A DNA stretch of 22,928 nucleotides. It comes from a virus. Taxonomy: Duplodnaviria > Heunggongvirae > Uroviricota > Caudoviricetes. A program made the position numbers and the translations under genes. Below are positions 3,724-16,321 of the stretch, one piece after another; within the stretch, counting starts at the first letter, position 1, and each line of letters opens with the position of its first letter. The notes under the pieces were generated by a model, which was not told the DNA's origin, made no database searches, and worked only from the letters and a program-made list of their open reading frames with translations. The stretch covers positions 1 through 22,928 of the IMG/VR virus record IMGVR_UViG_3300045988_024436, one strand, 5' to 3'.

Positions 3724-3830
3724 AACTTGTTACCTCGGTCTGTTACCGTTTAGGTAATAATTATGCTTATTTGGTTTGGTGTCAATAGATATGAGTTAAA
3801 AAAATTACCCGTAAGGTAATCTATCTGGCA
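3724..3830 (-). promoter_or_regulatory. leftward early promoter/operator region (PL-like)
   Basis: Minus-strand TTGACA (plus 3780-3785), 17-bp spacer, AATTAT (plus 3757-3762). TTACC-N5-GGTAA palindromes at 3743-3757 (abutting the -10) and 3805-3819 (upstream of the -35). Confidence 0.45.
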
Positions 3831-3876: not shown

Positions 3877-4461
3877 TTATTGTTTGCTTTTTTCGTTCTG
3901 GTTGATGACAAATTCAATGTAACTTTCGATCTTTGCTTTCTCGGTTTCGGGTAACAATGCGTAGCGTGAGCGGTCATAGTTGATAGTCGCAGGGTCGTGC
4001 GGGTGAATCAGTAGTTCATATCCGTGACGCCCGAATGCGGATGCAACATTCTCCAGGGTGGAAATGGAAACGCTGACCTCATTGTTTAACAGGCGGCTGA
4101 TTGTCACCTGGGCGACGCCGGATGCGCGGTGAAGTTTTCCCTGTGTTGAAAGGTCGCGGCTTTCGCTCATCCAGCGTTCCAGGTTGTGAGCCGCCAGCTG
4201 ACCTATATCGCTCGGGCCGACAGGCTGAAAACCCTCCTGAGAAAGCGAACGATCAATATCAAGCCAGTTACGGGGTTTATTGGCGGCAGCTTCAATTTTT
4301 CGTGCAACCTGGTCGCCGATAACCTTCTTGCCAAGAGCCCAGCGGTTTACCAGATTTGCCTGAGTTCCAAGTTTTTCTGCCATCCGCGTCTGAACACCAT
4401 TGAATTCACGGTCGATCAAGTCGTTGAGATTTTGCCTGCGGACGTCCTGGATACTTTTCAT
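3877..4461 (-). CDS. immunity repressor with two XRE-type HTH domains and no LexA-like S24 peptidase domain
   Basis: 194 aa; HTH 1 around QTRMAEKLGTQANLVNRWALGKK, HTH 2 around RASGVAQVTISRLLNNEVSVSISTLENVASAFG; divergent from a Cro-like gene; no Ala-Gly/Ser...Lys autocleavage module visible. Confidence 0.7.
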   Translation of the reverse strand: MKSIQDVRRQNLNDLIDREFNGVQTRMAEKLGTQANLVNRWALGKKVIGDQVARKIEAAANKPRNWLDIDRSLSQEGFQPVGPSDIGQLAAHNLERWMSESRDLSTQGKLHRASGVAQVTISRLLNNEVSVSISTLENVASAFGRHGYELLIHPHDPATINYDRSRYALLPETEKAKIESYIEFVINQNEKSKQ

Positions 4462-4615
4462 TTTCTGGAAAATCGCCTCATATATGAATCAGTAGATGAT
4501 TCAATTTAAAGCAATATTACCCAACAGGTAAATGCACCTCATAGGTAACTATCCTTGATTTTTGTTACCTTATGGGTGAATATTTATTATCTGAAATAAA
4601 TATCAGGCAATAGCT
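4462..4615. promoter_or_regulatory. divergent immunity switch region with three operator-like sites
   Basis: Sites TTACCcaacaGGTAA 4517-4531, GCACCtcataGGTAA 4534-4548, TTACCttatgGGTGA 4565-4579. Candidate rightward promoter TTGATT 4555-4560, 17-bp spacer, GAATAT 4578-4583. Confidence 0.55.
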
Positions 4616-4846
4616 ATGAGCGATAACGGACATTTCGATTTCAAAAAGCACTGGCTTGCACTTACTCCGGATGAGCGTGAAGCCTTCGCACAGGAAGCCG
4701 GAACGACTAGTCACTATATCCAGACTCACTTAACAGGCAAGCGCAAAATGCCAGGTAAGGTATTGATGAATGGGCTTTTTAAAGCCTGTAAAACAAGACA
4801 ATGGCTGCGCTCAAAAGCAGAACTGGCATACTTCTTCTACTCATGA
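4616..4846 (+). CDS. Cro-like small HTH regulator
   Basis: 76 aa, divergent from the repressor; REAFAQEAGTTSHYIQTHLTGKRKMP reads as an HTH; followed by a terminator. Confidence 0.55.
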   Translation: MSDNGHFDFKKHWLALTPDEREAFAQEAGTTSHYIQTHLTGKRKMPGKVLMNGLFKACKTRQWLRSKAELAYFFYS

Positions 4847-4868
4847 TATCCAGCTACAACCCTCTGTA

Positions 4869-4890
4869 GACCGCCACCCGGCGGTCTTTT
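4869..4890 (+). terminator. rho-independent terminator after the cro-like gene (tR1-like position)
   Basis: GACCGCC-ACCC-GGCGGTC followed by TTTT. Confidence 0.6.
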
Positions 4891-4994
4891 CATATCTATT
4901 CGTACCTCAAAGGTAATAAAAAACCAAATCTGGTTGATCAAATTTTCCAATTGTGCAAAATAGCCAATATCAATAACAAAAAGGGGCGGAAAAA

Positions 4995-5207
4995 TTGAAG
5001 ATAGTAACCAGAATGGAGGCCGCAAAAGCCGGGTTAAATCGCTATTTCACAGGAAAGCGGTGCCGTCACGGCCATCTCTCTGAAAGGTATGTTCTGAACG
5101 GAACATGTGTTGAATGTGCAATGAATAGCGCCAACCGCCATCGTAATGAATTTGCTTGTGCACTAAAGAGTGCAAGAGGGGAAACCTATGGCAAGCAGCT
5201 GGATTAA
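4995..5207 (+). CDS. small zinc-ribbon protein (CII-position gene, function unknown)
   Basis: 70 aa from TTG at 4995 (AAGGGG about 9 nt upstream), or 64 aa from ATG at 5013; CRHGH...CVEC metal-binding pattern; 3' end overlaps the replication gene start. Confidence 0.4.
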   Translation: MKIVTRMEAAKAGLNRYFTGKRCRHGHLSERYVLNGTCVECAMNSANRHRNEFACALKSARGETYGKQLD

Positions 5208-6018
5208 GGTTGAAGTTATCACTCCTGATAAACCTGAAATTTTTCAGATAGCAGAAATTCTGGGTATTGATCCAGATGCTGTTCTTGGAAAGCTGGTTCG
5301 TATATGGGCATGGGCTGACCAGCAAACAATAGACGGTAACGCTGGCAGCGTTACAAAAGGAGTACTTGATAGACTCGCTTTTATTACAGGATTTGCTGAC
5401 GCCCTCATTAGCGTCGGATGGCTTGCTTATCATGACGGCAAACTAATTCTTCCAAACTTTGAGCGACATAATGGAGAATCATCGAAAAAACGTGCACTTA
5501 CGAATAGAAGAGTGGCAGAGCATCGAAAACGAGTAACGCAAAAAGTAACGCCAACAGCGTTACAAAAGGAGTTACCAGAGGAAGAGGAAGAGGAAGATAT
5601 ATATAAAACCCCACACATAGCGCACGTGCGCGAGGGTGCTCCGACCAGTGAAGCGAACAGTACGCCGTTGCAGGTGGCAGAACCTGAATTTCTGGATGGC
5701 CTGAGTGAACCCATCGGGAAATTTCCGATGACAGATGGCTGGCTACCGTCGCCAGATTTTCGGCGGCGTGCTGCGCTGTGGGGAACGGCCCTGCCGGAAC
5801 CGGAATTTACACCTGCTGAACTTGCTGCATTCCGGGATTACTGGATGGCTGAGGGCAAAGTGTTCACGCAGGTTCAGTGGGAACAAAAATTCGCCAGGCA
5901 CGTAAATCATATCAGGGGAAAATCAAAAAATGCCGGGAAAAGCGATGAGCTTGACTGGAATAACACTGACTGGATAGAAGGGGTGTGGGATGAAATCAAC
6001 TCCAGAACTTCTCAATGA
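5188..6018 (+). CDS. replication initiation protein with DnaT-like C-terminal domain (O-like position)
   Basis: ATG at 5188 with SD AGAGGGG. C-terminus FPMTDGWLPSPDFRRRAALWGTALPEPEFTPAELAAFRDYWMAEGKVFTQVQWEQKFARHV matches recalled E. coli DnaT. Acidic linker EEEEEED. Confidence 0.7.
   Translation: MASSWIKVEVITPDKPEIFQIAEILGIDPDAVLGKLVRIWAWADQQTIDGNAGSVTKGVLDRLAFITGFADALISVGWLAYHDGKLILPNFERHNGESSKKRALTNRRVAEHRKRVTQKVTPTALQKELPEEEEEEDIYKTPHIAHVREGAPTSEANSTPLQVAEPEFLDGLSEPIGKFPMTDGWLPSPDFRRRAALWGTALPEPEFTPAELAAFRDYWMAEGKVFTQVQWEQKFARHVNHIRGKSKNAGKSDELDWNNTDWIEGVWDEINSRTSQ
5330..5612 (+). other. putative replication origin inside the initiator gene (iteron-like palindromes plus AT-rich tract)
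   Basis: GTAACGC-N5-GCGTTAC at 5336-5354 and 5545-5563, extra GTAACGC at 5533-5539, GTTAC at 5571-5575. 18-bp direct repeat CAGCGTTACAAAAGGAGT at 5346-5363 and 5555-5572. (GAGGAA)3 at 5578-5595, then ATATATATAAAA. Confidence 0.4.
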
Positions 6019-6766
6019 GTACGATCGCTTACGTGAGCATGGTGTTGCTGTGCATGAAGAGCGGCGTGACAGCAATGGCAAAAAGGAGCAGGTTGCTAGA
6101 ATTTTCAATGAACTATTTGTCCAGTTACAGGCTGCATTTCCTGCAAGCGTTTCGACCATAAGGGAGCAGAACAAACTTAATGAATTCCGTAAGCAATGGA
6201 TGCTTGCGTTTCTGGAGAATGGGATCACTACAATGGAACAGGTTAACGCTGGTATGCGCCACGCCCGCGCCAGTGAATCTCCGTTCTGGCCGTCGCCAGG
6301 GCAATTCATCAAGTGGTGCAAAGACAGCAAGATGGTTCTTGGCGTCACCATTGACGATGTGATGGCGGAGTTTCACCGGTACAGCAAGGAAAAAAGTTTA
6401 TATCCTGGTGGTCCCGAAAGATTCCCGTGGCGGCATCCGGTTATGTACTGGGTCGTATGTGATACCCGTCGTGCAATGTATCAGCGCCAGCTTAGCGAGA
6501 GTGAGGTTGAGAAACACGCGCGCAGGCTGCTCGATGATTGGGCGAAAAAGGTGGCTTCCGGACAGCAGATACCCGATCCGGTGATCAGCATACAGGCAAA
6601 GCCAGAGCCCATGAGTACACCTCCGGACACAGGGAGAGACGTTTACCATCCACCAGGGCGAAGTTTCGGGTGCATGCCTAACGCCGCCACCCTTGGGGGA
6701 ATAACACCGGCGCAGTGGCTGATGGAGGAATACAGGCGGGGAAAGGCGTCAGGATTTATCAAGTAA
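5990..6766 (+). CDS. P: lambda P-like replication protein (helicase loader)
   Basis: 258 aa; NGITTMEQVNAGMR and FWPSPGQFIKWC match the lambda P protein as recalled; start overlaps the stop of the upstream initiator gene. Confidence 0.8.
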   Translation: MKSTPELLNEYDRLREHGVAVHEERRDSNGKKEQVARIFNELFVQLQAAFPASVSTIREQNKLNEFRKQWMLAFLENGITTMEQVNAGMRHARASESPFWPSPGQFIKWCKDSKMVLGVTIDDVMAEFHRYSKEKSLYPGGPERFPWRHPVMYWVVCDTRRAMYQRQLSESEVEKHARRLLDDWAKKVASGQQIPDPVISIQAKPEPMSTPPDTGRDVYHPPGRSFGCMPNAATLGGITPAQWLMEEYRRGKASGFIK

Positions 6767-6771
6767 TACCA

Positions 6772-6791
6772 GCGCGATAGCGCATTTTTTT
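6772..6791 (+). terminator. weak terminator-like hairpin after the P-like gene
   Basis: GCGC-GATA-GCGC followed by ATTTTTTT; short stem. Confidence 0.35.
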
Positions 6792-6883
6792 ACGTATCGA
6801 TAATTACCTTAGAGGTAATAAAATATTCTAAAATCTATTGATTTCGTGTCTTATGTGGTTTTTAATTACCTAAGGGGTAAATC
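6792..6883 (+). promoter_or_regulatory. promoter with flanking operator-like palindromes upstream of the nuclease gene
   Basis: TTGATT 6838-6843, 17-bp spacer, TTTAAT 6861-6866. TTACCttagaGGTAA at 6804-6818; TTACCtaaggGGTAA at 6866-6880 overlaps the -10 and the SD of the 6884 gene. Confidence 0.5.
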
Positions 6884-7231
6884 ATGAGAAAACAGATGCA
6901 GGCTCTTGGTCGACTCAAAACAGGCCAGATGAACAAAACAGAATCTGCGTATTGCCAGCACCTTGAGCAGCGTAAACGTGCAGGGGAAATCGCTTGGTAT
7001 CGATTCGAGGGTATCAAGCTGCGGTTAGCTGACAACACGTTCTATACGCCAGATTTCGCTGTGATGCTCGCCACCGGCGAGATGGAACTGCACGAAGTGA
7101 AAGGGGGATTCTGGACCGACGACGCCAGGGTGAAAACCAAAGTCGCCGCAGATCAGTATCCGTTCCGAATCATCGGGGTAACGGTTAAACCAAAGAAAGC
7201 TGGTGGTGGCTGGAACATCGAAGAGTTCTGA
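6884..7231 (+). CDS. putative PD-(D/E)XK nuclease (VRR-NUC-like)
   Basis: 115 aa; D...ELHEVKGG arrangement (YTPDFAVMLATGEMELHEVKGG) suggests a D-x(n)-E-x-K active site. Confidence 0.45.
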   Translation: MRKQMQALGRLKTGQMNKTESAYCQHLEQRKRAGEIAWYRFEGIKLRLADNTFYTPDFAVMLATGEMELHEVKGGFWTDDARVKTKVAADQYPFRIIGVTVKPKKAGGGWNIEEF

Positions 7232-7335
7232 ATCGACGATCTTTTTAGTTATCAATGTAATCAATAAGTTATGTGGATAAGCGAGGGTAAAGATGGAAAG
7301 TAATATCAAAAGGGTTAGTTGCCGCCGGGCATGAG

Positions 7336-7755
7336 ATGGCTTCGGAACTGAAAGCTGAATGTGGTGCCGTTGATATGCGCAGTGTGGCAAAGCTGATCAG
7401 CGATTTGGCAACGCAACTGGAAGTGCAACTGGTGCGTGCTAATGCGCTGGCGGCGGAGAATGCGGCGCTGAAACACGCAATGGCCGTAACTCTTGAGCAT
7501 GTGTCGGTCACGGATGCAGGGCAGGCTGGTGTTGCTGCAATGATTATCAACGATGCCCTATACCACAGCGAAACTCCGGTCACCGACGCTCTCCTGGCTG
7601 AAGTACGTGCGCAGGCGTTTAATGACCTTTGCTCGGTGTTCGTTAAGGACGCGACGGTTGCCGGGCTGGACGATGGCGACATCGTTACGGTGAAAGAAGC
7701 GACGGACGCCCTGCTGCATTGTGCGGAGCAGCTTCGCAAAGGAGGCAACCAGTGA
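7336..7755 (+). CDS. hypothetical protein
   Basis: 139-aa track ORF on the coding strand of the operon; weak SD; the minus-strand ORF 7269-7925 is treated as antisense. Confidence 0.4.
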   Translation: MASELKAECGAVDMRSVAKLISDLATQLEVQLVRANALAAENAALKHAMAVTLEHVSVTDAGQAGVAAMIINDALYHSETPVTDALLAEVRAQAFNDLCSVFVKDATVAGLDDGDIVTVKEATDALLHCAEQLRKGGNQ

Positions 7756-8306
7756 GCAAGATTGATTATCAAAAGCTTCGTGAAATCGCTGAAAAAACAA
7801 AAATTGCTGGTGAAGCACCTGTAATGCCTTTCGATCAGCGAATTAATGCGCTTAACGATTTTATGAAGCACTTTTCGCCAGATATCGCGCTGGCATTGTT
7901 GGATGAACGGGAAAGAAACCTGCAATACATCAAAAGCCGCGATCAGGAGAACGAGGATATTGCGCTAACGGTAGGGAAGCTGCGTGTTGAGCTGGAAGGC
8001 AAAGACAGCAAAATAGCCAATCTTACCGCCGAACGCGATGCTCTTCGTGAAGGTGAGATGGGCGACGCTAGGCATAGCAACACACGGGCCGCAGCTGATA
8101 TCTACTTCCAACTGGTCGAGGAGTGCGAAATTCCTGCTGGCGGTTCTCTGGTCGAGTACGTTGACGATATGCGCGAGAAGCTGGAAGCCGCAGAGAAGCG
8201 CATTGCAGAACTGGAAGCACGGGAAATAAAACCAGCCAAAGGTGAAGTTCTTGTCGTTGTTCTGGTTTTACTGGTTGCGGAAAAAGCGCCATCGCCGGGG
8301 AAATAG
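7752..8306 (+). CDS. coiled-coil protein, Ead/Ea22-like
   Basis: GTG at 7752 with SD AAAGGAGG 6 nt upstream, overlapping the upstream stop (GTGA); SKIDYQKLREIAEK... then heptad-rich LEAAEKRIAELEAR; hydrophobic C-terminus VLVVVLVLLVA. Confidence 0.45.
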   Translation: MSKIDYQKLREIAEKTKIAGEAPVMPFDQRINALNDFMKHFSPDIALALLDERERNLQYIKSRDQENEDIALTVGKLRVELEGKDSKIANLTAERDALREGEMGDARHSNTRAAADIYFQLVEECEIPAGGSLVEYVDDMREKLEAAEKRIAELEAREIKPAKGEVLVVVLVLLVAEKAPSPGK

Positions 8307-8314
8307 AAATCGCG

Positions 8315-8503
8315 ATGAAGGCTATTGGTGTACCGGTTAAGTGGACTAATGGCGATGCAGAAAAGCGCATGACTGGCGCTGACTGGCTGACAGCGATTGA
8401 GATGTACAAACCAACTGTGCGCATCGTGGAAGTTAATGTGCCATGCGTCGCTGGCATTTGCATCAAAGGAGACGCAGGAGAGCAAAACGATGAAAAACCG
8501 TAA
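8315..8503 (+). CDS. hypothetical small protein
   Basis: 62 aa; on the operon strand; weak SD. Confidence 0.35.
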   Translation: MKAIGVPVKWTNGDAEKRMTGADWLTAIEMYKPTVRIVEVNVPCVAGICIKGDAGEQNDEKP

Positions 8504-8678
8504 AGCAAAGATTCTGTTAGTTCGTAGAAACGCTCCTGGCGTCTGGCAGTGGGTGAGACTCAGCAACCGACGGATGGGGTTGATGAAATATTACGGGATG
8601 ATGGATTGTGGTTTTTGCAAAAAGCCCAGCGCGGCGCAAAACCGCTGGAAAAACCACTTGCGTACTAAAGGAGAGTGA
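8490..8678 (+). CDS. hypothetical small basic protein
   Basis: 62 aa from ATG at 8490 with GGAG 9 nt upstream; MKNRKAKILLVRRNAPGVWQW...; C-terminal part of track ORF 8397-8678. Confidence 0.35.
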   Translation: MKNRKAKILLVRRNAPGVWQWVRLSNRRMGLMKYYGMMDCGFCKKPSAAQNRWKNHLRTKGE

Positions 8679-8679
8679 T

Positions 8680-8889
8680 ATGGCTATCGCTGCAAGTTAC
8701 ACCATGCATCTCTATTGTGACTGCCGTCAGTGCACGGAAGGTGTATATCCAGTGCCAGACTTCGGTGAGTATATAGGTACGTCATGGGCTGGCTGTGCAA
8801 AAGAGGCGCGCAAGGATGGCTGGCGAATAAGCAAAGACAAAACGCGTGCTTTTGCGCCCGGGCATAAAGTTTTGAGGATTAACAAATGA
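8680..8889 (+). CDS. small Cys-rich protein
   Basis: 69 aa from ATG at 8680 with SD AAGGAGAG; CDCRQC cluster; contains FGEYI, shared with the 10384 gene. Confidence 0.4.
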   Translation: MAIAASYTMHLYCDCRQCTEGVYPVPDFGEYIGTSWAGCAKEARKDGWRISKDKTRAFAPGHKVLRINK

Positions 8890-9833
8890 CCACTATTACC
8901 AGAGAACAAGCTCTGAAAATTATTGAGGCAGCCGATGAGGTTATTAGTGCGCTGGCCGGAACTAACGAGGATGTTCACCCTGGTAGCGATAACATGCTAC
9001 GCCTGTGGGATGACCTGAATGACCGTTACGCGCCGCCGGAAATTGTGCGTGAACTGGCACGGATTGTGCTGGCATCGCTGGAAGCCGAGCCTGTTCTGTA
9101 TCAGTCCTGCACTCGCCCCACCTGGAATAGCGGTGTTCCGTGGACGGAATGGAAAGAACGAAGTCGTGAGTGCTACGAAGACGATTTGCGCTTTACAGAC
9201 ACGCCTGACCATGCCGGTTGGATATACAAATGTCGAAAACTATATACCACTCCGCCAGCGCCGATAGCGTTAGAGGCCATTGAAAACGCAATTGAATACA
9301 TCCGCAGTATCGCTTTTCACATCGATGAAGACGATTACCACGGCAAACATATTGCGTATTTCATGCAGCAAGCATTGGCCTGGCTGGAAGGGCATTCATG
9401 CAGCGACGACAGACTGGGTAAAGCCGAGAATCAACCAGTACGCGGCAACCAGGCTGCCGAATCCAATCGCGATAATGAGTGGACTGGCAATCCTGATATT
9501 GATAACGCCATCATCATGCTCGACCGCATAGATACGCTGGAAAATTGCGATGATGACCGTATTGAGGCTGTTAAGGCTGTTTTGCGTAGACTGGCTGGCA
9601 ACTATCCGGTAATTCCGGATGGTTGGATAAGCTGTAGTGAGCGAATGCCTGAGAACATTCCCGGAAGTTGTAAAGAGTATCTGGTGTTTGATGGGCTTAA
9701 TAATAAAGTTCATCACGATTACTGGGTTGTCCCTGATGGAGACAGTGCGCCAGTTGCGTCGTTCTGGAATCATTACGGGGCACATGTAACTCACTGGATG
9801 CCTCTACCGGAACCGCCGCAGGAGGTTAATTGA
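8886..9833 (+). CDS. DUF551-like phage protein
   Basis: 315 aa; C-terminal GWISCSERMPE...VTHWMPLPEPPQ resembles the DUF551 signature as recalled; SD GAGGA before the ATG. Confidence 0.55.
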   Translation: MTTITREQALKIIEAADEVISALAGTNEDVHPGSDNMLRLWDDLNDRYAPPEIVRELARIVLASLEAEPVLYQSCTRPTWNSGVPWTEWKERSRECYEDDLRFTDTPDHAGWIYKCRKLYTTPPAPIALEAIENAIEYIRSIAFHIDEDDYHGKHIAYFMQQALAWLEGHSCSDDRLGKAENQPVRGNQAAESNRDNEWTGNPDIDNAIIMLDRIDTLENCDDDRIEAVKAVLRRLAGNYPVIPDGWISCSERMPENIPGSCKEYLVFDGLNNKVHHDYWVVPDGDSAPVASFWNHYGAHVTHWMPLPEPPQEVN

Positions 9834-10117
9834 TGGTCTCCTTCGCGAAATATACGATTATTGACTGGATAGCATTCATTCAGGTTTTGCTCATCTGGTT
9901 TTATATGGCTTACAGGAGTGGACAGTGGATTGTCAGTGTAGCCTGTAGCAATGGATGGCGTTGGTGGAACCGAAAGAATAAAAAAGCGCTGGCCTTGGCT
10001 TCGTTTTACGAAGCATTCAATCTTAACAGTCTTCAGCCTGGTTCTGTCGTTGTAGTCACCACTCAAAGCGGCATGACGATACAAATTCACAAGCCAAAGG
10101 AGGAAGGTCGTGGCTAA
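9833..10117 (+). CDS. small membrane protein
   Basis: ATG at 9833 overlapping the upstream TGA; SD AGGAGG 7 nt upstream; hydrophobic N-terminal segment IIDWIAFIQVLLIWFYMAY. Confidence 0.4.
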   Translation: MVSFAKYTIIDWIAFIQVLLIWFYMAYRSGQWIVSVACSNGWRWWNRKNKKALALASFYEAFNLNSLQPGSVVVVTTQSGMTIQIHKPKEEGRG

Positions 10118-10391
10118 CCTGCAACTTGCCGTTAAAGGTGAATACTTCGATGCCATGATTCGCGGAGAGAAAACGGAAGAGTATCGCCTGTGTAATGACT
10201 ACTGGAATAAGCGAATTATGTTCCGCGAGTATGACCGCCTGATTATCACAAAGGGATATCCGAAGCGCGACGATTCCAGCCGCAGAATTGACGTCCCGTA
10301 TGACGGATATGAAATCAAGACAATCACACATCCGCACTTCGGCGATAAACCGGTAAAGGTGTTCGCTATAAAGGTGAATATTGATGGCTAA
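10110..10391 (+). CDS. ASCH-like domain protein
   Basis: GTG start with SD AAGGAGGAAGG; EYFDAMIRGEKTEEYRL fits the ASCH G-x-K-T-x-E-x-R motif. Confidence 0.45.
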   Translation: MANLQLAVKGEYFDAMIRGEKTEEYRLCNDYWNKRIMFREYDRLIITKGYPKRDDSSRRIDVPYDGYEIKTITHPHFGDKPVKVFAIKVNIDG

Positions 10392-10722
10392 ATCAGCAGC
10401 AGAGCGCAAAGCCGCTCAGAGAGCCAGACAAGCTGCATCTGGTGTGCGTAAGCTGGAAATTGTGCTTGATGCTCAGGAAATTGAAATGCTGGAGCGTAAC
10501 TGTGCCACGCGTCGCCCCGGGCGTGCGCCTTACGAATTTGGTGAGTATATAGCGTTACTGATCCGCCAGGATGATGCACGCGTGCACGGGCGTATAAAAT
10601 CGATCAGCAGAAAACGTTGCGGTAAGTGCGGCGAGAGAGTTCCTGTGAATTCATGCCCGTGTGATGGTGACTCGCAATGCTGGGTGACTAAAGGCTGGCA
10701 TGAAACGAAATTAATAGTGTGA
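10384..10722 (+). CDS. Cys-rich protein, possible zinc-finger regulator immediately upstream of the late operon
   Basis: ATG at 10384 with SD AAGGTG; C-terminal CGKCGERVPVNSCPCDGDSQC; stop TGA overlaps the palindrome GTGACATGTCAC. Confidence 0.4.
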   Translation: MAKSAAERKAAQRARQAASGVRKLEIVLDAQEIEMLERNCATRRPGRAPYEFGEYIALLIRQDDARVHGRIKSISRKRCGKCGERVPVNSCPCDGDSQCWVTKGWHETKLIV

Positions 10723-10771
10723 CATGTCACGAGTAGATTATGCATGATGAATTTGATGGGGTTTGAATACT

Positions 10772-10797
10772 GCCGCCAACTATGGCGGCTTTATTTT
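10772..10797 (+). terminator. rho-independent terminator between accessory genes and terminase
   Basis: GCCGCC-AACTAT-GGCGGC followed by TTTATTTT. Confidence 0.55.
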
Positions 10798-10803
10798 GCA
10801 TGG

Positions 10804-10841
10804 TACTATTACCACAACGGTAACTATTACCACGGTGGTTA
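10804..10841 (+). promoter_or_regulatory. operator-like palindromes and direct repeat upstream of the terminase small subunit
   Basis: TTACCacaacGGTAA at 10809-10823 and TTACCacggtGGTTA at 10827-10841; direct repeat ACTATTACCAC at 10806-10816 and 10824-10834. Confidence 0.4.
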
Positions 10842-11296
10842 TGATGCCTGCTGAACCTAAAGCCTATAAACGCAAATCAACGCAATTTAAGCCACTAACA
10901 GCAATGCAGGAGGCTTATTGCCAGTCATACATCAAAACGCCTGAAAACCAGACTCAGGCAGCGATTAACGCAGGATTCTCCCCAAATACAGCGGCAGTTA
11001 AAGCCAGTGTCATGATGCGCGATGAACGCATTCAAAAACGGATTGCCGAGTTGATGGAGGAGCGCAACAAACGAATGCGCGTCAGTGCTGATTACGTTCT
11101 CATGCGCTTGGTGGAGATCGACCAGATGGACGTGATCGACATCCTCAACGACGATGGTAGCCTTAAGCCAATCCGAGAGTGGCCGAAAATCTGGCGCACT
11201 ACGCTTAGCGGCTTTGATCTGTCATCGACCATCATGAACATGAACGAGGATTCGATAGAGACAATCATCAAAAAATTAAATGGCCTGACAAGGTGA
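10841..11296 (+). CDS. terminase small subunit, probably C-terminally truncated by a frame change
   Basis: Track ORF starts at 10763 but its first 26 codons are the terminator and operator DNA, so ATG at 10841 or 10844 is preferred. A protein-like frame ([20 protein letters not shown]...[10 protein letters not shown]) continues from 11290 to a TGA at 11431-11433 that overlaps the GTG of the large subunit. Confidence 0.55.
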
Positions 11297-11429
11297 AGAA
11301 CCTCGAACTGATTGGTAAGCACGTCGACGTCAACGCATTCAAAGAACGCCTGGATGTTAATGTGAATGTGACAATTGCTGATCGCATAGCGGCAGCCAGG
11401 AAGAGACTGAAGAACGTCAGTGGCAATCA

Positions 11430-12908
11430 GTGACAGATACAGCGTTATCTCCTGAAGAGCAGTTAATCGAGATATTGCAGGGTTCACTCACGATCCGCTT
11501 GGCTATGCCCTCTATGGGTTCCCCGTGGGGGGGAAGGAGGGTACTGAACTGGCGACATGCCACCGGTCCACGTCAGTGGCAGGCCGATGCGTTCCGAGAG
11601 ATACGTGATCACCTGCAGAATCCAGAGACGCGATATCAGCCGCTTATGCTGGCACGTGCTTCTGGTCACGGTATTGGTAAATCCGCATTCATCTCAATGC
11701 TGATCAACTGGGGCATGTCCACTTGCGAGGATTGTAAGGTCGTGGTGACCGCCAACACCGACAACCAGCTACGAACGAAGACCTGGCCGGAAATTATCAA
11801 GTGGTCAAACCTTGCTATCACGAAAGACTGGTTTACCTGTACCGCTACCGCGATGTACAGCAATGACCCTGGGCACGACAAGCGGTGGCGAGCTGACGCA
11901 ATCCCCTGGTCTGAGCACAACACTGAGGCATTCGCCGGACTACACAACGAGCGTAAACGCATCATCGTGGTATTTGATGAAGCGTCGAACATTGCGGATC
12001 TGGTGTGGGAAGTTGCCGAGGGTGCGCTAACGGACGAAGACACTGAGATTATCTGGGTGGCTTTCGGAAACCCTACACGTAACACCGGGCGTTTCCGTGA
12101 ATGTTTCCGCAAATACAAACACCGCTGGAAAACTGCGCAGATTGACAGCAGGACGGTGGAAGGCACCAACAAACAGCAGTTGCAGAAATGGGTTGATGAC
12201 TACGGGGAAGATAGCGACTTCGTTAAAATCCGTGTGCGTGGCATATTCCCTGATGCATCTGAATTGCAGTTTATCCCTACCGGTCTTACTGACGAGGCAA
12301 TGAAACGGGTGGTAACTGCTGCGCAGGTGGCACATGCTCCGGTGATAATCGGCGTTGACCCGGCATACTCCGGCGTTGATGACGCTGTGATATACCTGCG
12401 GCAGGGGCTACACAGTAAGGTGCTGTGGACTGGCAACAAGACTACCGACGATCTGATTATGGCGAAGCGTATCGCTGACTTTGAAGACCAGTATCAGGCT
12501 GACGCGGTGTTCATCGACTTCGGTTACGGAACCGGTTTGAAGTCAATCGGTGACGGCTGGGGTCGTACATGGCAACTTGTTCCGTTCGGTGGCGCGTCTA
12601 CTGACCAGCAGATGCTCAACAAGCGTGGGGAGATGTTCAACTCATGCAAGACATGGCTGAGGCTGGGCGGCATGCTTGATGACCAGGAAACAGCGGACGA
12701 CCTGTCGGCGGCAGAGTACAAAGTTCGAGTGGACGGTAAAATCGTTATCGAACCGAAGGAAGATATCAAGGAGCGGCTTGGGCGTTCTCCTGGTAAAGGC
12801 GATGCGCTACTGCTGACGTTTGCGTTCCCGGTGTCAAAGCGCCTGCGAATTCCCGGGCAGCAGAACCAGCAAGGCAAGGCCATTACAGATTACGATCCCT
12901 ATGCTTAA
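11430..12908 (+). CDS. terminase large subunit
   Basis: 492 aa; ATPase-like N-terminal half and nuclease-like C-terminal half ([11 protein letters not shown]...DAV); GTG start overlaps the upstream stop. Confidence 0.8.
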
Positions 12909-12958
12909 TCCGTTAGCGGGGATAATGACGGAGATATCCTCTGGTGAGGATAAAACAA

Positions 12959-12978
12959 AGCCAGCTCATCGGCTGGCT
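12959..12978. terminator. hairpin terminator after terminase, stronger on the minus strand
   Basis: AGCCAGC-TCATCG-GCTGGCT; T-rich on the minus side (TTTGTTTTAT) and TGTTTGT on the plus side. Confidence 0.5.
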
Positions 12979-13184
12979 GTTTGTGACATGTCACGGTGTT
13001 AGAAGGTTATTTTATCGAATGCGGCGTTGATTGCCTTGGCGTCCTGCTCAGCACCAACCACATCAAGTAAAGATCTTTTACTAAGCACTTCAGCCAGGCA
13101 TTGTAACTTCATTGTTGTATAAGGTTTTTCGCGCATTGTAATTCATCATCACTTTTTTCTTTGGCGTATACAGCGCGAGAAATA

Positions 13185-13427
13185 TCAAACTACATTGCCT
13201 TTTTCCATTTCAGTTTTCTGCGCTGAAATCCAGTCATGGCAAGTAACTCCTATTCCATGGTCATCGCTAAGCGTTAACCCGGCAAGTCGCTCACCTGGAA
13301 TTGCTTCACAAAGCATTTCATTTCCTGCAAAAACACCATAAAAAATTGAGTCATCACCCTGAACAATGCGTACATATTTGCACGGCCATTCATTTAGATA
13401 TTTAGCTAGCATGTCGGCTGTTTTCAT
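13185..13427 (-). CDS. hypothetical 80-aa protein in minus-strand insert between terminase and head genes
   Basis: ATG at 13425-13427 with SD AAGGTGAG; opposite strand to the flanking late genes; lies between two minus-strand terminators. Confidence 0.4.
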   Translation of the reverse strand: MKTADMLAKYLNEWPCKYVRIVQGDDSIFYGVFAGNEMLCEAIPGERLAGLTLSDDHGIGVTCHDWISAQKTEMEKGNVV

Positions 13428-13436
13428 GATCTCACC

Positions 13437-13459
13437 TTAAAAAAATGCCCGGCGAACCG
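13437..13459 (-). terminator. rho-independent terminator (minus strand) immediately upstream of the 80-aa ORF
   Basis: Minus strand reads GCCCGG-TTCG-CCGGGC then A TTTTTTT, ending 2 nt before the SD. Confidence 0.6.
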
Positions 13460-13496
13460 GGCGAACTGGAAGCAATGAGTTATGCCTTCCGTGGCT

Positions 13497-13512
13497 GTAC
13501 TGGTTTACAGCA
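13497..13512. promoter_or_regulatory. LexA-box-like palindrome CTGTA-N6-TACAG
   Basis: CTGTACTGGTTTACAG fits the CTGT-N8-ACAG SOS-box core with CTGTA/TACAG arms; centre less AT-rich than canonical boxes. Confidence 0.3.
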
Positions 13513-13540
13513 TGAAGCCATCGCAATGGCGCCCTGCTGT

Positions 13541-13582
13541 AAAAAGGGCGGTGATAGTCCTTCAAGGGAAACCATCACCGCC
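13541..13582 (-). terminator. terminator-like hairpin downstream of the tRNA (minus strand)
   Basis: 9-bp stem GGCGGTGAT/ATCACCGCC (13547-13582), 18-nt loop, followed on the minus strand by CTTTTTAC. Confidence 0.45.
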
Positions 13583-13626
13583 AAGCCCCTGGAACTTCTG
13601 GCATCACGGTCCTTAGGCGTGATTCT

Positions 13627-13702
13627 GGCGTGGCATGCAGGATTCGAACCTGCGACCAACCGCTTAGAAGGCGGTTGCTCTGTCCAGCTGAGCTAATGCC
13701 AC
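13627..13702 (-). tRNA. tRNA-Arg (anticodon UCU)
   Basis: Reverse complement GTGGCATTAGCTCAGCTGGACAGAGCAACCGCCTTCTAAGCGGTTGGTCGCAGGTTCGAATCCTGCATGCCACGCCA folds as a cloverleaf: 7-bp acceptor stem, anticodon loop CTTCTAA, T-loop TTCGAAT, encoded CCA. Close to E. coli argU as recalled. Confidence 0.9.
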
Positions 13703-14129
13703 AACGCTGAGAGCACTTAGCCTGTTAAGGCGCCACACTTTGTCGCGGCTCCATAAATGCTCTCATCGTTGTACCCTCGTCTCTTCCGAGGCGTCACACC
13801 GAATCGCCGGGATGGTGAATCCCCGTGCGCGGAATAAAACCGCTCGACTTGCACATTCCGGCTACCTGGTTCGTTTGCCCGAGCAAGGGAGGGTGCCCCT
13901 TAAACGTATCCAGACCGCTATCGGCGCATGTGCCATACGCCGTACTGCTCAAAATAAAAGCTCACTCCACCTGTTCAATTTAACGACAAGCCAGTCAGGT
14001 TAGTAACCGGAATGAACTCTTTGGTTACCTGAAAGGTAATAATTTGTGCGTTAAATGTCAACTGCCTACGATAAATAAATCATATGTGGTTAAATTGGTA
14101 ATAATTTAATTGCGTACGGAGTCATTGAT

Positions 14130-14350: not shown

Positions 14351-16028
14351 ATGGCGGAAACAACTAAAGAGCGATTGAACAAACAGTTCGCACAACTTGA
14401 AAGCGAGCGTCAGTCGTTCGAGCCGCACTGGCGCGAGTTGAGTGATTACATCAACCCGCGTGGTTCCCGCTTTCTGACTTCTGAGGTTAACCGTAACGAT
14501 CGACGCAATACACGCATTATTGATTCGACCGGGACTATGGCGGCGCGCACTCTCGCCAGCGGCATGATGTCAGGCATCACAGCCCCGCGCGTCCGTGGTT
14601 TCGCCTGGCTAGCCAGATCCTGAAATGATGGATTATGGCCCTGTTAAGTTGTGGCTTGAGGCGGTGCAGAACCGCATGAACGATATGTTCAATAAGTCGA
14701 ATCTCTATCAGTCGCTGCCGCAGTTATACGGAAGCCTCGGCACATACAGCACTGGTGCAATGGCAGTGCTGGAGGATGACGAGGACATCATTCGCACAAT
14801 GCCATTCCCGATAGGCAGTTACTACCTGGCTAACTCACCTCGTGGCAGTGTGGACACCTGTTTTCGCAAGTTCTCTATGACTGTTCGTCAGCTTGTTCAG
14901 GAGTTCGGGCTAAATAACGTCAGCGAATCCGTAAAAAGCATGTGGGAAAGCGGAACCTACGAGAAGTGGATTGAAGTGATGCATTCGGTTTACCCGAACA
15001 TTGACCGCGATACATCGAAGCTGGATAGCAAGAACAAGCCATTCAAATCGGTTTATTACGAGGTTGGTGGCGATAACGACAAGTTGTTGCGTGAGTCCGG
15101 ATTCGATGAGTTTCCAATTATGGCTCCGCGCTGGGAAGTTAACGGCGAAGATGTTTATGGATCATCATGCCCGGGTATGCTGGCGCTTGGACCTGTTAAG
15201 GCATTGCAGCTTCTCCAGAAGCGCAAGTCGCAGTTGATTGATAAAGCCACCAATCCGCCGATGGTTGCTCCGACTTCCCTCAAGAATCAGCGTGCCTCCC
15301 TTCTTCCTGGCGACATCACGTATATCGATCAGATTACTGGTCAGGATGGTTTCAGGCCTGCTTATCTGGTTAACCCCAGTACAGCAGATTTGGTGGCAGA
15401 CATTCAGGACACCCGTCAAATCATTAACAGCGCCTACTTTGTCGATCTGTTCATGATGTTGCAGAACATCAATACCCGCTCGATGCCTGTTGAAGCGGTG
15501 ATCGAAATGAAAGAAGAAAAACTTCTGATGTTGGGGCCGGTTCTGGAGCGTCTGAACGACGAATGTCTTAATCCTCTCATTGACCGCGCTTTCTCGATGA
15601 TGGTGCGTAAAAACATGCTGCCGCCACCGCCTGACGCGATGGAAGGTATGCCCCTGAAGGTCGAATACATTTCCGTCATGGCTCAGGCGCAGAAGTCTAT
15701 CGGCCTGTCCAGTCTGGCGTCTACGGTCAACTTCATTGGTCAACTTGCGCAAGCGAAACCAGAAGCTCTCGACAAACTCAACGTTGATCAGGCGATCGAT
15801 GCATTCGCTGATATGTCCGGAGTGTCTCCAACCGTCATTGTTCCGCAGGAACAGGTTGAGCAGGCTCGCCAGCAACGGGCACAGCAACAACAGCAGCAAC
15901 AAATGATGGCGATGGGGATGGCGGCGGCACAGGGTGCCAAGACGCTAAGCGAAGCTAAAACTTCGGATCCGAGTGTTTTGTCAGCTATGGCGAATGCAGT
16001 TAGTGGTCAGGGTGGGCAATCACAATGA
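14351..16028 (+). pseudogene. portal (head-to-tail connector) protein, apparently split by two nearby frame changes (or sequencing errors)
   Basis: ORFs 14351-14623 (90 aa) and 14625-16028 (467 aa) are in different frames. The third frame across the junction encodes SPARPWFRLA (14581-14610), which resembles the P-x3-W-x-RL stretch of T7 gp8; a C4 run lies at 14583-14586. Poly-Q near the C-terminus. Confidence 0.65.
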
Positions 16029-16321
16029 CAGATTACGAAGACGATCAACTGAAAGAAGAAAACGCCCGTAAGCAACGTGACATGGCACAGCGTGAAATTG
16101 ATGACATTTGCTTTGTCATGAGCAGTGAACAGGGGCGTCGCGTTGTCTGGTCGGTGCTGGAGAAAGGCCGTGTGTTTTCCGCTATCTCACCGATGGACGC
16201 TATGGCAATGGCATTTAATGAGGGGCAACGCAATCTGGCGCTGGAACTGTTTCAGCGCGTTATGGCGCATTGCCCTGAACAGTATTTGAAGATGGCCAAA
16301 GAGGCCAGTGAACAGGAGTGA
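16025..16321 (+). CDS. hypothetical head-assembly protein
   Basis: 98 aa; ATG overlaps the portal stop (ATGA). Confidence 0.45.
   Translation: MTDYEDDQLKEENARKQRDMAQREIDDICFVMSSEQGRRVVWSVLEKGRVFSAISPMDAMAMAFNEGQRNLALELFQRVMAHCPEQYLKMAKEASEQE

Follow-up and report, generated by a model that had tools for sequence, protein, structure and literature searches.

The palindrome TTACC-N5-GGTAA recurs in front of operons across an E. coli Uetakevirus prophage (a phiV10/ε15-like podovirus), and its copies are probably operators of the immunity repressor Rep, a member of the ε15 gp38/SPC32H Rep family, through which the prophage would be silenced operon by operon. The motif is real, functional, and already known, being the operator of the ε15/SPC32H-type repressor. 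In the ε15-type group, nearly every operon has this operator at its start, and the sites are not confined to the neighborhood of the repressor gene. The computed part of this explanation comprises the enrichment of the motif, its intergenic placement, its syntenic conservation, a half-site footprint, repressor homology, and the co-occurrence of the half-site with a Rep-type domain.

The whole stretch of DNA that was analyzed (22,928 nucleotides, referred to as the window) holds 7 exact copies of the motif compared with 0.00 expected from shuffled sequence, and 10 copies at no more than one mismatch compared with 0.41 expected; none of 100 shuffles reached either count. All 10 lie in intergenic DNA, which makes up 8.9% of the window in our gene model. 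Matches with two mismatches occurred at background level (10 in coding sequence and one, the middle OR site at 4534, in intergenic DNA). The same scan yielded 1 match in lambda (0.9 expected) and 1 match, within a coding sequence, in 50 kb of E. coli K-12 sequence (0.79 expected), both at chance level. The recurrence of the palindrome is genuine and far beyond chance. A preliminary description had quoted sites that are all present at the positions it gave, and its impression from a partial manual scan that coding sequence contains no copies holds in the full scan for all copies with at most one mismatch.

The same description had held that the motif matches no known phage operator. This was wrong because the ε15 record (GenBank AY150271.2) lists seven TTACC-N5-GGTAA copies as "repressor" binding sites, and the motif is therefore an already-known operator of the ε15 family. 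The annotated set consists of sites before terS and before gp3 and the head genes, three sites at OL, one before the gene 43 operon, and one in the tailspike slot, which falls outside the window. Further copies in ε15 are without annotation, namely those of OR (33341, 33358, and 33388) and those at 24704, 26882, and 35969, and phiV10-type E. coli records have no operator annotation. The ε15 annotation, with which Kropinski et al. 2007 (Virology 369:234) is associated, appears, as far as can be told, to be a sequence prediction itself.

The repressor gene (3877..4461, minus strand, 194 aa) was assigned by homology to Rep of Salmonella phage SPC32H (PDB 5D50; E 3.5e-42, residues 1-190). Its product shares 99.5% identity with phiV10 gp40 and ZX5 ORF21 and 43% with ε15 gp38. 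Following a published domain scheme (PMC9986798), Rep comprises three domains: an N-terminal one for DNA binding, whose recognition helix is QANLVNRW, a middle HTH-like one for dimerization, and a C-terminal one for tetramerization; the NLVNRW helix is unchanged among Reps with just 43% identity. SPC32H Rep is described as a tetramer whose binding sites are palindromic and which loses its activity to an antirepressor, not to cleavage mediated by RecA (PMC9638917), and its tetramerization domain is of the looping type (PMC9638917; PMC9986798). Overexpression of ZX5 ORF21 blocks lytic growth and shuts down the holin and endolysin transcripts (PMC9782041). According to PMC9986798, how repression works at the structural level "has not been extensively characterized".

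In an extended 17-bp form, A-TTACC-W5-GGTAA-T, the palindrome is found at matching positions in phiV10, ε15, SPC32H, Tyrion, and a Klebsiella relative. The shared slots are OL, OR, the region after the cro terminator, and the regions before the DUF1064/RuvC operon, terS, and the head operon; beyond the window, the relatives carry sites in the ant/tail-fiber region, in the lysis cassette, and at int. Site counts (expected numbers in parentheses) were 14 (0.64) in phiV10, 18 (0.48) in SPC32H, 15 (0.75) in Tyrion, and 13 (0.42) in Klebsiella phage BUCT711. Three further prophages with altered Rep helices have the same slots filled, and the Rep helix and the half-site showed no covariation within the family, including these three. 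Among 54 exact sites, the consensus is A-TTACC-WWWWW-GGTAA-T, with the center base A or T in 106 of 108 symmetrized positions and with motif positions 6 and 10 lacking conservation. Across 80 IMG/VR loci with Rep at least 99% identical, half-sites never vary, and each spacer has up to 12-15 variants.

These patterns bear on two other readings. The copies could act in RNA, as small 5'-leader hairpins that hide the Shine-Dalgarno or punctuate transcripts: every 17-mer has the potential to form a hairpin with 4-7 base pairs, and the copies at 6866 and 10827 hold the Shine-Dalgarno in a loop or stem. However, these hairpins are weak (-1.7 to -5.2 kcal/mol), the 54 sites and 80 population loci show a fixed sequence and no compensatory stem changes, and several copies stand upstream of promoters or between divergent ones, with no single transcript direction. 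We regard an RNA-level role as very improbable. Equally hard to credit is binding by a host transcription factor instead of a phage protein. The E. coli antitoxin MqsA binds ACCT-N2-4-AGGT, and the sites at 4902, 6804, and 14025, which read ACCT-N3-AGGT, resemble this target. Against a host factor stand the unconserved positions 6 and 10, the chance-level counts in 50 kb of the E. coli chromosome and in lambda, the conservation of the motif in phages of Escherichia, Salmonella, Enterobacter, Klebsiella, and Serratia, and an N4-spaced form in a Pseudomonas phage that always adjoins a Rep-type gene.

In the immunity region, the exact OL proximal operator (3743..3757; operators are given without strand) has its end base in common with the -10 of the putative leftward promoter PL (minus strand; TTGACA at 3785-3780, 17 bp, and AATTAT at 3762-3757; promoter score 10/12). 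The exact distal operator (3805..3819) is spaced 62 bp from its proximal partner and stands 20 bp upstream of the -35 of PL; a 62-63-bp spacing is retained in phiV10, ε15, SPC32H, Tyrion, and BUCT711. OR is a cluster of three operators (4517..4579), of which 4517-4531 is exact, 4534-4548 has two mismatches, and 4565-4579 has one; a layout of 17 + 30/31 bp is also seen in ε15 and SPC32H. The operator at 4565-4579 falls in the spacer of the predicted rightward promoter PR, in a region with a promoter-like TTGTTA-17-TATTAT at 4562-4590 and a TTGATT at 4556-4561. As described previously, a further copy follows cro: this weaker operator, a GTACC variant with one mismatch (4902..4916; GTACCTCAAAGGTAA), lies 15 bp past the cro terminator (4868-4887) and ahead of the replication genes. 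The GTACC variant fills the same slot in phiV10 and Tyrion.

The middle operon (DUF1064/RuvC) has an operator on each side of its putative promoter, a sigma-70-type TTGATT-17-TTTAAT read from the sequence (6838..6866, plus strand; TTGATT at 6838-6843 and TTTAAT at 6861-6866). The exact distal operator (6804..6818; TTACCTTAGAGGTAA) comes after a conserved short hairpin and T7 run located at the end of the replication operon. In an alignment of five genomes, its half-sites and GGTAATAAAAT are invariant and its spacer varies. The phiV10 record has a terminator annotated at the equivalent place, and the ε15 record labels the equivalent site (35906-35922) a repressor site. The exact proximal operator (6866..6880; TTACCTAAGGGGTAA), 62 bp from the distal one, overlaps the -10 by its first base and extends over the start-site region and the Shine-Dalgarno AAGGGG of the gene that begins at ATG 6884. 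The bracketing of the promoter and the overlap noted in the preliminary description both hold. The -35/-10 pair between the two sites is invariant in the alignment, with TTGA and the -10 region kept in all five genomes.

The terS control region (10801..10841, plus strand) combines an extended -10-like element with two operators immediately before the start of the terminase small subunit gene. It follows a terminator at 10772-10789 and begins with TGGTACTAT (10801-10809), which runs into the exact operator at 10809-10823 (TTACCACAACGGTAA). A degenerate operator with one mismatch (10827-10841; TTACCACGGTGGTTA) covers the Shine-Dalgarno and touches the terS ATG (10841/10844). TGnTACTAT and both sites are invariant in the window, phiV10, Tyrion, ε15, and SPC32H, and positions 12-27 before terS in the ε15 record are annotated as a repressor site. 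Overlap with a conserved extended -10-like element fits direct repression.

The exact operator at 14025..14039 (TTACCTGAAAGGTAA) separates the leftward tRNA-Arg/moron region from the rightward head operon, 91 bp ahead of the first head-operon ORF (14130), in keeping with its earlier placement. It is invariant in the five genomes, and the ε15 record marks 2931-2947 as a repressor site. A conserved TTGACA at 14056-14061 (minus strand), which is 16 nt away from the operator, may belong to a leftward promoter directed at tRNA-Arg (13626-13702); its GTCAA is invariant with gap-free spacing in five genomes, and the -10 (TACCTT) of such a promoter would fall inside an operator half-site. On the plus strand, the conserved ATATGTGGTT-N7-TAATAA (14082..14103) sits in a block of 28 invariant nt and may form the core of the rightward late (head) promoter, relative to which the operator is centered at about -78 (about 80 bp upstream). 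The same element follows the operator by 45-57 bp in the head, tail-fiber, and lysis slots of all genomes. Because the site centers there are about 67-80 bp upstream of the ATATGTGGTT...-10 element, the rightward late promoter is unlikely to be simply occluded at these three operons, and direct repression of the late operons is something we infer from sequence. In phiV10, the lysis-slot site is within what is probably the promoter of oac, a lysogenic-conversion gene expected to be active in lysogens; this counts against a repressor reading of that site.

The spacing at the head, tail-fiber, and lysis operons resembles that of class I activators, and these late promoters have no conserved -35. 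The dispersed copies might be read mainly by another conserved phage regulator, such as the Cro-like protein or a phrog_536 regulator (10381-10722), and serve as upstream activator sites at late operons, with the same palindrome serving repression in lysogeny and activation in lytic growth. The Cro-like protein (4616..4846, plus strand; 76 aa; phrog_35 "transcriptional repressor") is a small HTH protein with 76% identity to ε15 gp39 and an invariant AGTTSHYIQTHLT. It is more conserved than Rep, retaining 76% identity and an invariant HTH across clades whose Reps are 43% identical, and it could be a second reader of the same operators. Nevertheless, the sites at terS, the 6884 gene, PL, and PR overlap a -10, start-site region, or Shine-Dalgarno, which are repressor positions; the half-site in Pseudomonas siphovirus PseuP_224 goes with a Rep-type domain while its Cro shows no similarity to that of the window; and the ε15 annotators gave the sites to the repressor. 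We consider this alternative unlikely. The preliminary description had proposed one regulator, most simply the immunity repressor. A single DNA-binding specificity across many transcription units stands, with Rep the best candidate on the basis of homology, the ε15 labels, five-genome synteny, invariant half-sites, and PseuP_224; that a single protein reads the sites is less secure, since the Cro-like protein could do so as well.

For repression by Rep, sequence and the cited structure papers suggest a model of recognition. The N-terminal HTH domains of two Rep subunits would read the two TTACC half-sites, centered 10 bp apart, with no base-specific reading of the 5-bp A/T-rich spacer. Since the DNA-binding domains of the tetramer form two pairs, it can bind two operators at once, which fits sites paired at 17-18 bp (OR and terS) or at 62 bp flanking a promoter (PL and 6838-6866); the pairing and any looping are presumptive, as are binding at each site and the promoter assignments. 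At PL, PR, the DUF1064 promoter, and the terS leader, where the -10, spacer, or start region contains the operator or has a base in common with it, Rep would exclude RNA polymerase. In the case of terS and the 6884 gene, bound Rep would in addition cover the DNA of the Shine-Dalgarno region. The remaining copies appear to mark the starts of all other transcription units, right after the preceding terminator. Each unit having its own operator suggests silencing operon by operon, not a lambda-style cascade from two clusters. A LexA-controlled antirepressor, whose gene is outside the window, would inactivate Rep and release all units together.

This arrangement matches ε15 in the TTACC-N5-GGTAA core, genus, gene order, and site slots, but the Rep of the window is just 43% identical to gp38, and the OL and OR spacers are less A/T-rich. 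SPC32H (PDB 5D50 and 5D4Z) has a repressor homologous over its full length and the same motif in the same slots. Its Rep/Ant switch is reportedly the subject of Kim & Ryu 2013 and Kim et al. 2016; here, the ant gene lies outside the window, and in phiV10 a LexA box is found upstream of the ant homologue.

PseuP_224, taken as a representative of lambda-type immunity, likewise has divergent rep and cro genes flanked by palindromic operator clusters with identical half-sites. Its cI resembles Rep in the N-terminal DNA-binding domain only (E 1e-12), and four TTACC-N4-GGTAA sites (0.31 expected) all flank cI. The same half-sites around a Rep-type domain tie the half-site to the repressor domain, and their restriction to the surroundings of cI shows that dispersal is particular to Uetakeviruses. 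This link from Rep to the motif draws on one outgroup. Unlike the window, PseuP_224 has sites solely at OL and OR, a 4-bp spacer, an S24-peptidase-type cI C-terminus, and a Q antiterminator for its late genes. In contrast, the window has an operator copy for each operon, and no Q homologue was recognized in it.

Mycobacteriophage L5, with its "stoperators", and phage P1, with its C1 operators, each have one prophage repressor that acts at many sites scattered over short intergenic regions, late regions included; L5 stoperators are orientation-dependent elongation blocks. By analogy, these appear to be the functionally nearest systems for operon-by-operon silencing. Such scattered sites are asymmetric (PMC1934351), whereas those of the window's group are perfect palindromes, about 14-16 per genome, that mostly overlap or flank promoters.

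Exact copies of the palindrome TTACC-N5-GGTAA occur seven times in the window, compared with 0.00 expected from dinucleotide-preserving shuffles, and a pattern search allowing up to one mismatch returned 10 copies (0.41 expected under the same control). Four of these are in the immunity region, at 3743 and 3805 in the cluster left of the repressor gene (OL) and at 4517 and 4565 in the cluster to its right (OR). The other six, at 4902, 6804, 6866, 10809, 10827, and 14025, are exactly where the preliminary description had placed them and are spread over four further operon boundaries. By a gene model that combines ORFs with annotation taken from near relatives, coding sequence makes up 91% of the window, yet all 10 sites are intergenic, in line with the initial impression that coding copies are absent. 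At two mismatches, the matches are close to background: 10 are coding and the only intergenic one is the middle OR site (4534). Chance or composition as the origin of the motif is ruled out by the shuffles and by two unrelated genomes at chance level, phage lambda (one match, 0.9 expected) and 50 kb of E. coli K-12 (one match, 0.79 expected). The local context also agreed with the first reading: the cro terminator (4868-4887) precedes the 4902 site, TTGATT-17-TTTAAT lies between the 6804 and 6866 sites (at 6838-6866), a Shine-Dalgarno sequence is within the 6866 site, and the second site before the terminase small subunit gene (terS) touches its ATG.

The window is ~98% identical to E. coli phages HEMP4, vB_EcoP_ZX5, TL-2011b, and phiV10, and its structural genes are ~77% identical to those of Salmonella phage ε15 (genus Uetakevirus). 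The immunity repressor, Rep (194 aa; encoded at 3877-4461 on the minus strand), shares 99.5% identity with its phiV10 and ZX5 counterparts and 43% with the ε15 and SPC32H repressors, and it matches the SPC32H Rep structure (5D50) over residues 1-190 (E = 3.5e-42). It has the N-terminal DNA-binding, middle dimerization, and C-terminal tetramerization domains of the Rep family, and its gene is divergent from that of the Cro-like protein (76 aa; 4616-4846, plus strand), which is 76% identical to ε15 gp39. Rep is a tetramer in which the DNA-binding pairs are contributed by different dimers, and it carries a looping-type tetramerization domain (PMC9638917; PMC9986798). Overexpression of the ZX5 repressor blocked lytic growth and abolished holin and endolysin transcripts (PMC9782041).

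The motif had initially been thought to match no known phage operator. This fails because the GenBank record of ε15 (AY150271.2) contains seven protein_bind features labeled "repressor," all of which are copies of TTACC-N5-GGTAA: 12-27 (before terS), 2931-2947 (before gp3 and the head genes), 19895-19911 (before the tailspike gene), 32479, 32554, and 32616 (left of the repressor gene), and 35906-35922 (before gene 43). The window sites at 10809/10827, 14025, and 6804/6866 align with ε15 positions 12/30, 2932, and 35907/35969. Dispersal beyond the immunity region is thus already on record, dispersed Rep sites with this sequence are a basic fact known from ε15, and we regard the finding as mainly a known annotation carried over to a close relative. 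Further exact or near-exact ε15 copies, at 33341, 33358, 33388, 24704, and 35969, lack annotation in AY150271.2; these account for the entire OR cluster, the copy at the lysis slot, and, in the middle operon (the DUF1064/RuvC operon), the site proximal to the promoter. A full-text literature search, with the original ε15 and SPC32H papers outside its scope, returned no description of the operator sequence for ε15, phiV10, or SPC32H. In the 2007 ε15 paper of Kropinski et al., the consensus is reportedly 17 bp long and has the form ATTACCWDWWNGGTAAT.

The motif is strongly overrepresented in every relative examined. At up to one mismatch, there are 14 copies in phiV10 (0.64 expected), 18 in SPC32H (0.48), 15 in Tyrion (0.75), and 13 in Klebsiella phage BUCT711 (0.42), while ε15 has 11 exact copies, 15 at up to one mismatch, and 33 at up to two mismatches (11.24 expected). 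Nine slots are occupied alike in each genome: two copies 18 bp apart before terS (A), a single copy upstream of the head operon (B), the divergent ant/tail-fiber region (C), the region upstream of the lysis cassette, usually with a TCACC variant (D), a GGTAT variant ~57 bp before int (E), OL (F), OR with three copies (G), a weak variant directly after the cro terminator (H), and a pair flanking the middle-operon promoter (I). Pooling 54 exact sites gave the consensus A-TTACC-WWWWW-GGTAA-T, and A or T fills the center in 106 of 108 symmetrized positions. This 17-bp palindrome is clustered at OL and OR in the window, with the layout seen in ε15, SPC32H, Tyrion, and BUCT711. Every computationally testable defining feature of the ε15/SPC32H Rep operator system was found, and on the grounds of sequence, synteny, and repressor homology, the window sites are a member of that system. 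Overall, the feature is real and probably functional, and in all likelihood these sites are the operators for Rep in a phiV10-like prophage. The new elements are comparative: conservation slot by slot across at least six genomes, the promoter-flanking pairs spaced at 62 bp, the invariant half-sites with hypervariable spacers, an N4-spaced outgroup, and copies that lack annotation at OR, at the lysis and int slots, and at the second site of the middle operon.

A scan of IMG/VR in search of diverse relatives yielded only near-identical loci. Across 80 such loci (Rep ≥99% identical), the half-sites never vary, and the 5-bp spacers have up to 12-15 variants per site. Such invariant half-sites with variable spacers are the footprint expected of a dimeric protein that reads the half-sites. 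An RNA hairpin would tolerate compensatory changes; the stems are fixed and show none, and the RNA reading was rejected on this invariance together with a hairpin folding check. The hypervariable spacers are at locus positions of about 1538-1650 and 4643, and a 6-bp stretch immediately outside the distal OL site is as variable as they are. Mosaic recombination and relaxed constraint are candidate causes of the spacer variability.

Reps with only 43% overall identity share an invariant N-terminal helix, NLVNRW, but the Cro-like protein is also very conserved, so conservation alone cannot tell Rep from Cro as the reader of the motif. We collected 86 Rep homologs and inspected three prophages (from Serratia, E. 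coli, and a metagenome) with altered recognition helices for covariation with the half-site. None was found in these three: EPNLVSRW, QPNLVSRW, and NANLISRW all accompany TTACC-N5-GGTAA, and the motif pattern is the same despite the different helices. A more distant comparison was provided by the Pseudomonas siphovirus PseuP_224, in which homology to Rep covers the first ~70 residues of cI (39% identity, E = 1e-12) and the remainder is an S24-peptidase-type domain. Its genome contains four copies of TTACC-N4-GGTAA (0.31 expected), two on each side of cI (10906-10945 and 11768-11820) and none elsewhere, and it carries a Q antiterminator. No similarity was detected between the PseuP_224 Cro-like ORF and the Cro-like protein of the window; this ORF is unannotated, encodes 76 aa, and is divergent from cI (locus L091, 3661-3891, minus strand). 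Because PseuP_224 shares the Rep-like domain and the half-sites while its Cro is unrelated, the half-site appears to travel with the Rep-type DNA-binding domain. Copies at every operon are therefore a trait of the Uetakevirus layout and not of the domain. The earlier proposal of one regulator, most simply the immunity repressor, gains from this outgroup as far as the half-site is concerned, whereas its extension to direct control of the late operons stays conjectural.

The placement of the operators suggests how Rep may act. At three promoters of one design, a -10-like hexamer and the operator overlap by one base, a T that ends the former and begins the latter: the leftward promoter PL (minus strand, TTGACA-17-AATTAT; operator 3743-3757), the middle-operon promoter (TTGATT-17-TTTAAT, with the -35 and -10 conserved in five genomes; operator 6866-6880), and the terS leader (TGGTACTAT, extended -10-like and invariant in five genomes; operator 10809-10823). 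A second operator is located exactly 62 bp away, beyond the -35, at PL and the middle promoter, and a 62-63 bp pair spacing is retained in all five other genomes. The third OR site occupies the spacer of the rightward promoter PR. A single Rep tetramer would hold two operators that are either adjacent (17-18 bp) or flank the polymerase site (62 bp), and repression at PL, PR, the middle promoter, and terS would occur by occlusion. Terminators of the preceding units (4868-4887, about 6772-6791, and 10772-10789) are located 5' of the dispersed sites, which fits a separate Rep-controlled entry point for each unit. A cos or pac site near 10723-10841, where the phiV10 and ε15 records start, was also considered and rejected; that start is merely the base after the stop codon of the last gene and hence is no evidence for a physical genome end.

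The late operons are the weaker part of the reading. In all genomes, the operators of the head (14025), tail-fiber, and lysis slots are followed, 45-57 bp downstream, by a conserved element, ATATGTGGTT-N7-(TAATAA/TAATAG/TATAAT). This element, which lacks a conserved -35, is at 14082-14103 in the window (ATATGTGGTT-N7-TAATAA), with a variant at 6851-6860, and at 20922 and 24740 in phiV10; it may be the core of a late promoter or a regulator site. If it is the core, the operator would be centered near -67 to -80, too distant for simple occlusion. In addition, a conserved minus-strand TTGACA (14061-14056) has ungapped spacing in five genomes, and its -10 position overlaps the 14025 site. This putative promoter would transcribe leftward to a tRNA-Arg(UCU) gene (13626-13702, minus strand), which may be expressed from it, and describing the 14025 site as in front of the head operon may thus be half the story. 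The tRNA gene is preceded by a ~320-nt noncoding GC-rich leader (13703-14024) and followed by two terminator-like hairpins (13582-13547 and 13462-13447). An RNA-family scan of the window returned the tRNA only, with no Rfam match in the leader, and there is accordingly no known RNA element near the 14025 site. Sites are present before both terS and the head operon, the latter site being at about -78 from the candidate core, and direct repression of late units is something we infer. We judge direct repression of the head operon by Rep to be an even bet. The sites at the head, tail-fiber, and lysis slots could perhaps serve in activation, possibly via the Cro-like protein.

Several observations concern neighboring elements. 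Every genome has a conserved one-mismatch copy, TTACCYTAAAGGTAT, ~57 bp ahead of the integrase start (phiV10 26870-26884, ε15 26882, L004 26960, L005 28568, and L006 12620), and Rep may control int, judging from this placement. The ε15 record annotates integrase and RNase III sites there and not a repressor site. The window does not reach the region of ant, the gene for a putative LexA-controlled antirepressor that would serve as inducer; in phiV10, whose Rep is 99.5% identical, a LexA-box-like CTGTATAAATACACAG (CTGT-N8-ACAG, 20822-20837) is directly upstream of the ant homolog gp24, and a TCACC-variant operator is 40 bp further upstream, between ant and the tail-fiber gene. A second dispersed palindrome, TGTGACATGTCACG, occurs five times with both strands counted (0.19 expected) and marks operon ends. 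One copy (10718-10731) overlaps the stop codon of the last early-right gene (10381-10722), another (12982-12995) is just 3' of terL and adjoins a bidirectional terminator, and a one-mismatch copy (16076-16089) is inside a coding sequence. The operon-end positions of its core, GTGACATGTCAC, are shared by phiV10, ε15, SPC32H, Tyrion, and BUCT711, and the palindrome is unannotated in the ε15 record. Relative to TL-2011b and phiV10, terS (10844-11432) is frameshifted by a 1-nt deletion at ~11270, and the portal gene (14351-16028) is broken into two ORFs, 14351-14623 and 14625-16028, by two frameshifting 1-nt deletions (~14581 and ~14612). These frameshifts reflect either prophage decay or assembly indel errors.

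A bolder model, which we consider improbable, is a flat design in which an operator invariant across the genus is present at every unit (early, middle, terminase, head, tail fiber, lysis, int, and ant) and is read by Reps that have diverged to 43% identity. Late sites ~70-80 bp upstream of the conserved nonconsensus promoter core ATATGTGGTT-N7-TAATAA would have a dual use: tetrameric Rep would bridge or loop them for silencing in the lysogen, and in lytic growth the same sites would support activation via the Cro-like protein or another phage factor. Were this model true, immunity specificity in the genus would be set by Rep-Ant pairing and not by operator recognition. 

On the main reading, this common group of E. 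coli, Salmonella, and Klebsiella prophages is probably silenced operon by operon by one tetrameric repressor and not through a lambda-style cascade. This bears on predicting which prophage genes are expressed in lysogens (tRNA, O-antigen modification, and lysis), on engineering reporter phages derived from phiV10 and SPC32H, and on adding operators to the records of the E. coli members, from which they are missing.

Compared with known systems, the window does not have the lambda-like arrangement, in which OL and OR hold all of the operators and an antiterminator or activator is the sole route to the late genes. PseuP_224 is lambda-like, with four of four sites flanking cI, whereas the window sites are dispersed, although the DNA-binding domain is common to both. 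The repressors of mycobacteriophage L5 and phage P1 likewise act at many sites. However, the sites of L5 and P1 are not symmetric, and L5-type stoperators have an orientation that correlates with transcription; the window sites are symmetric palindromes for which no orientation can be defined, and they are not of the stoperator type.
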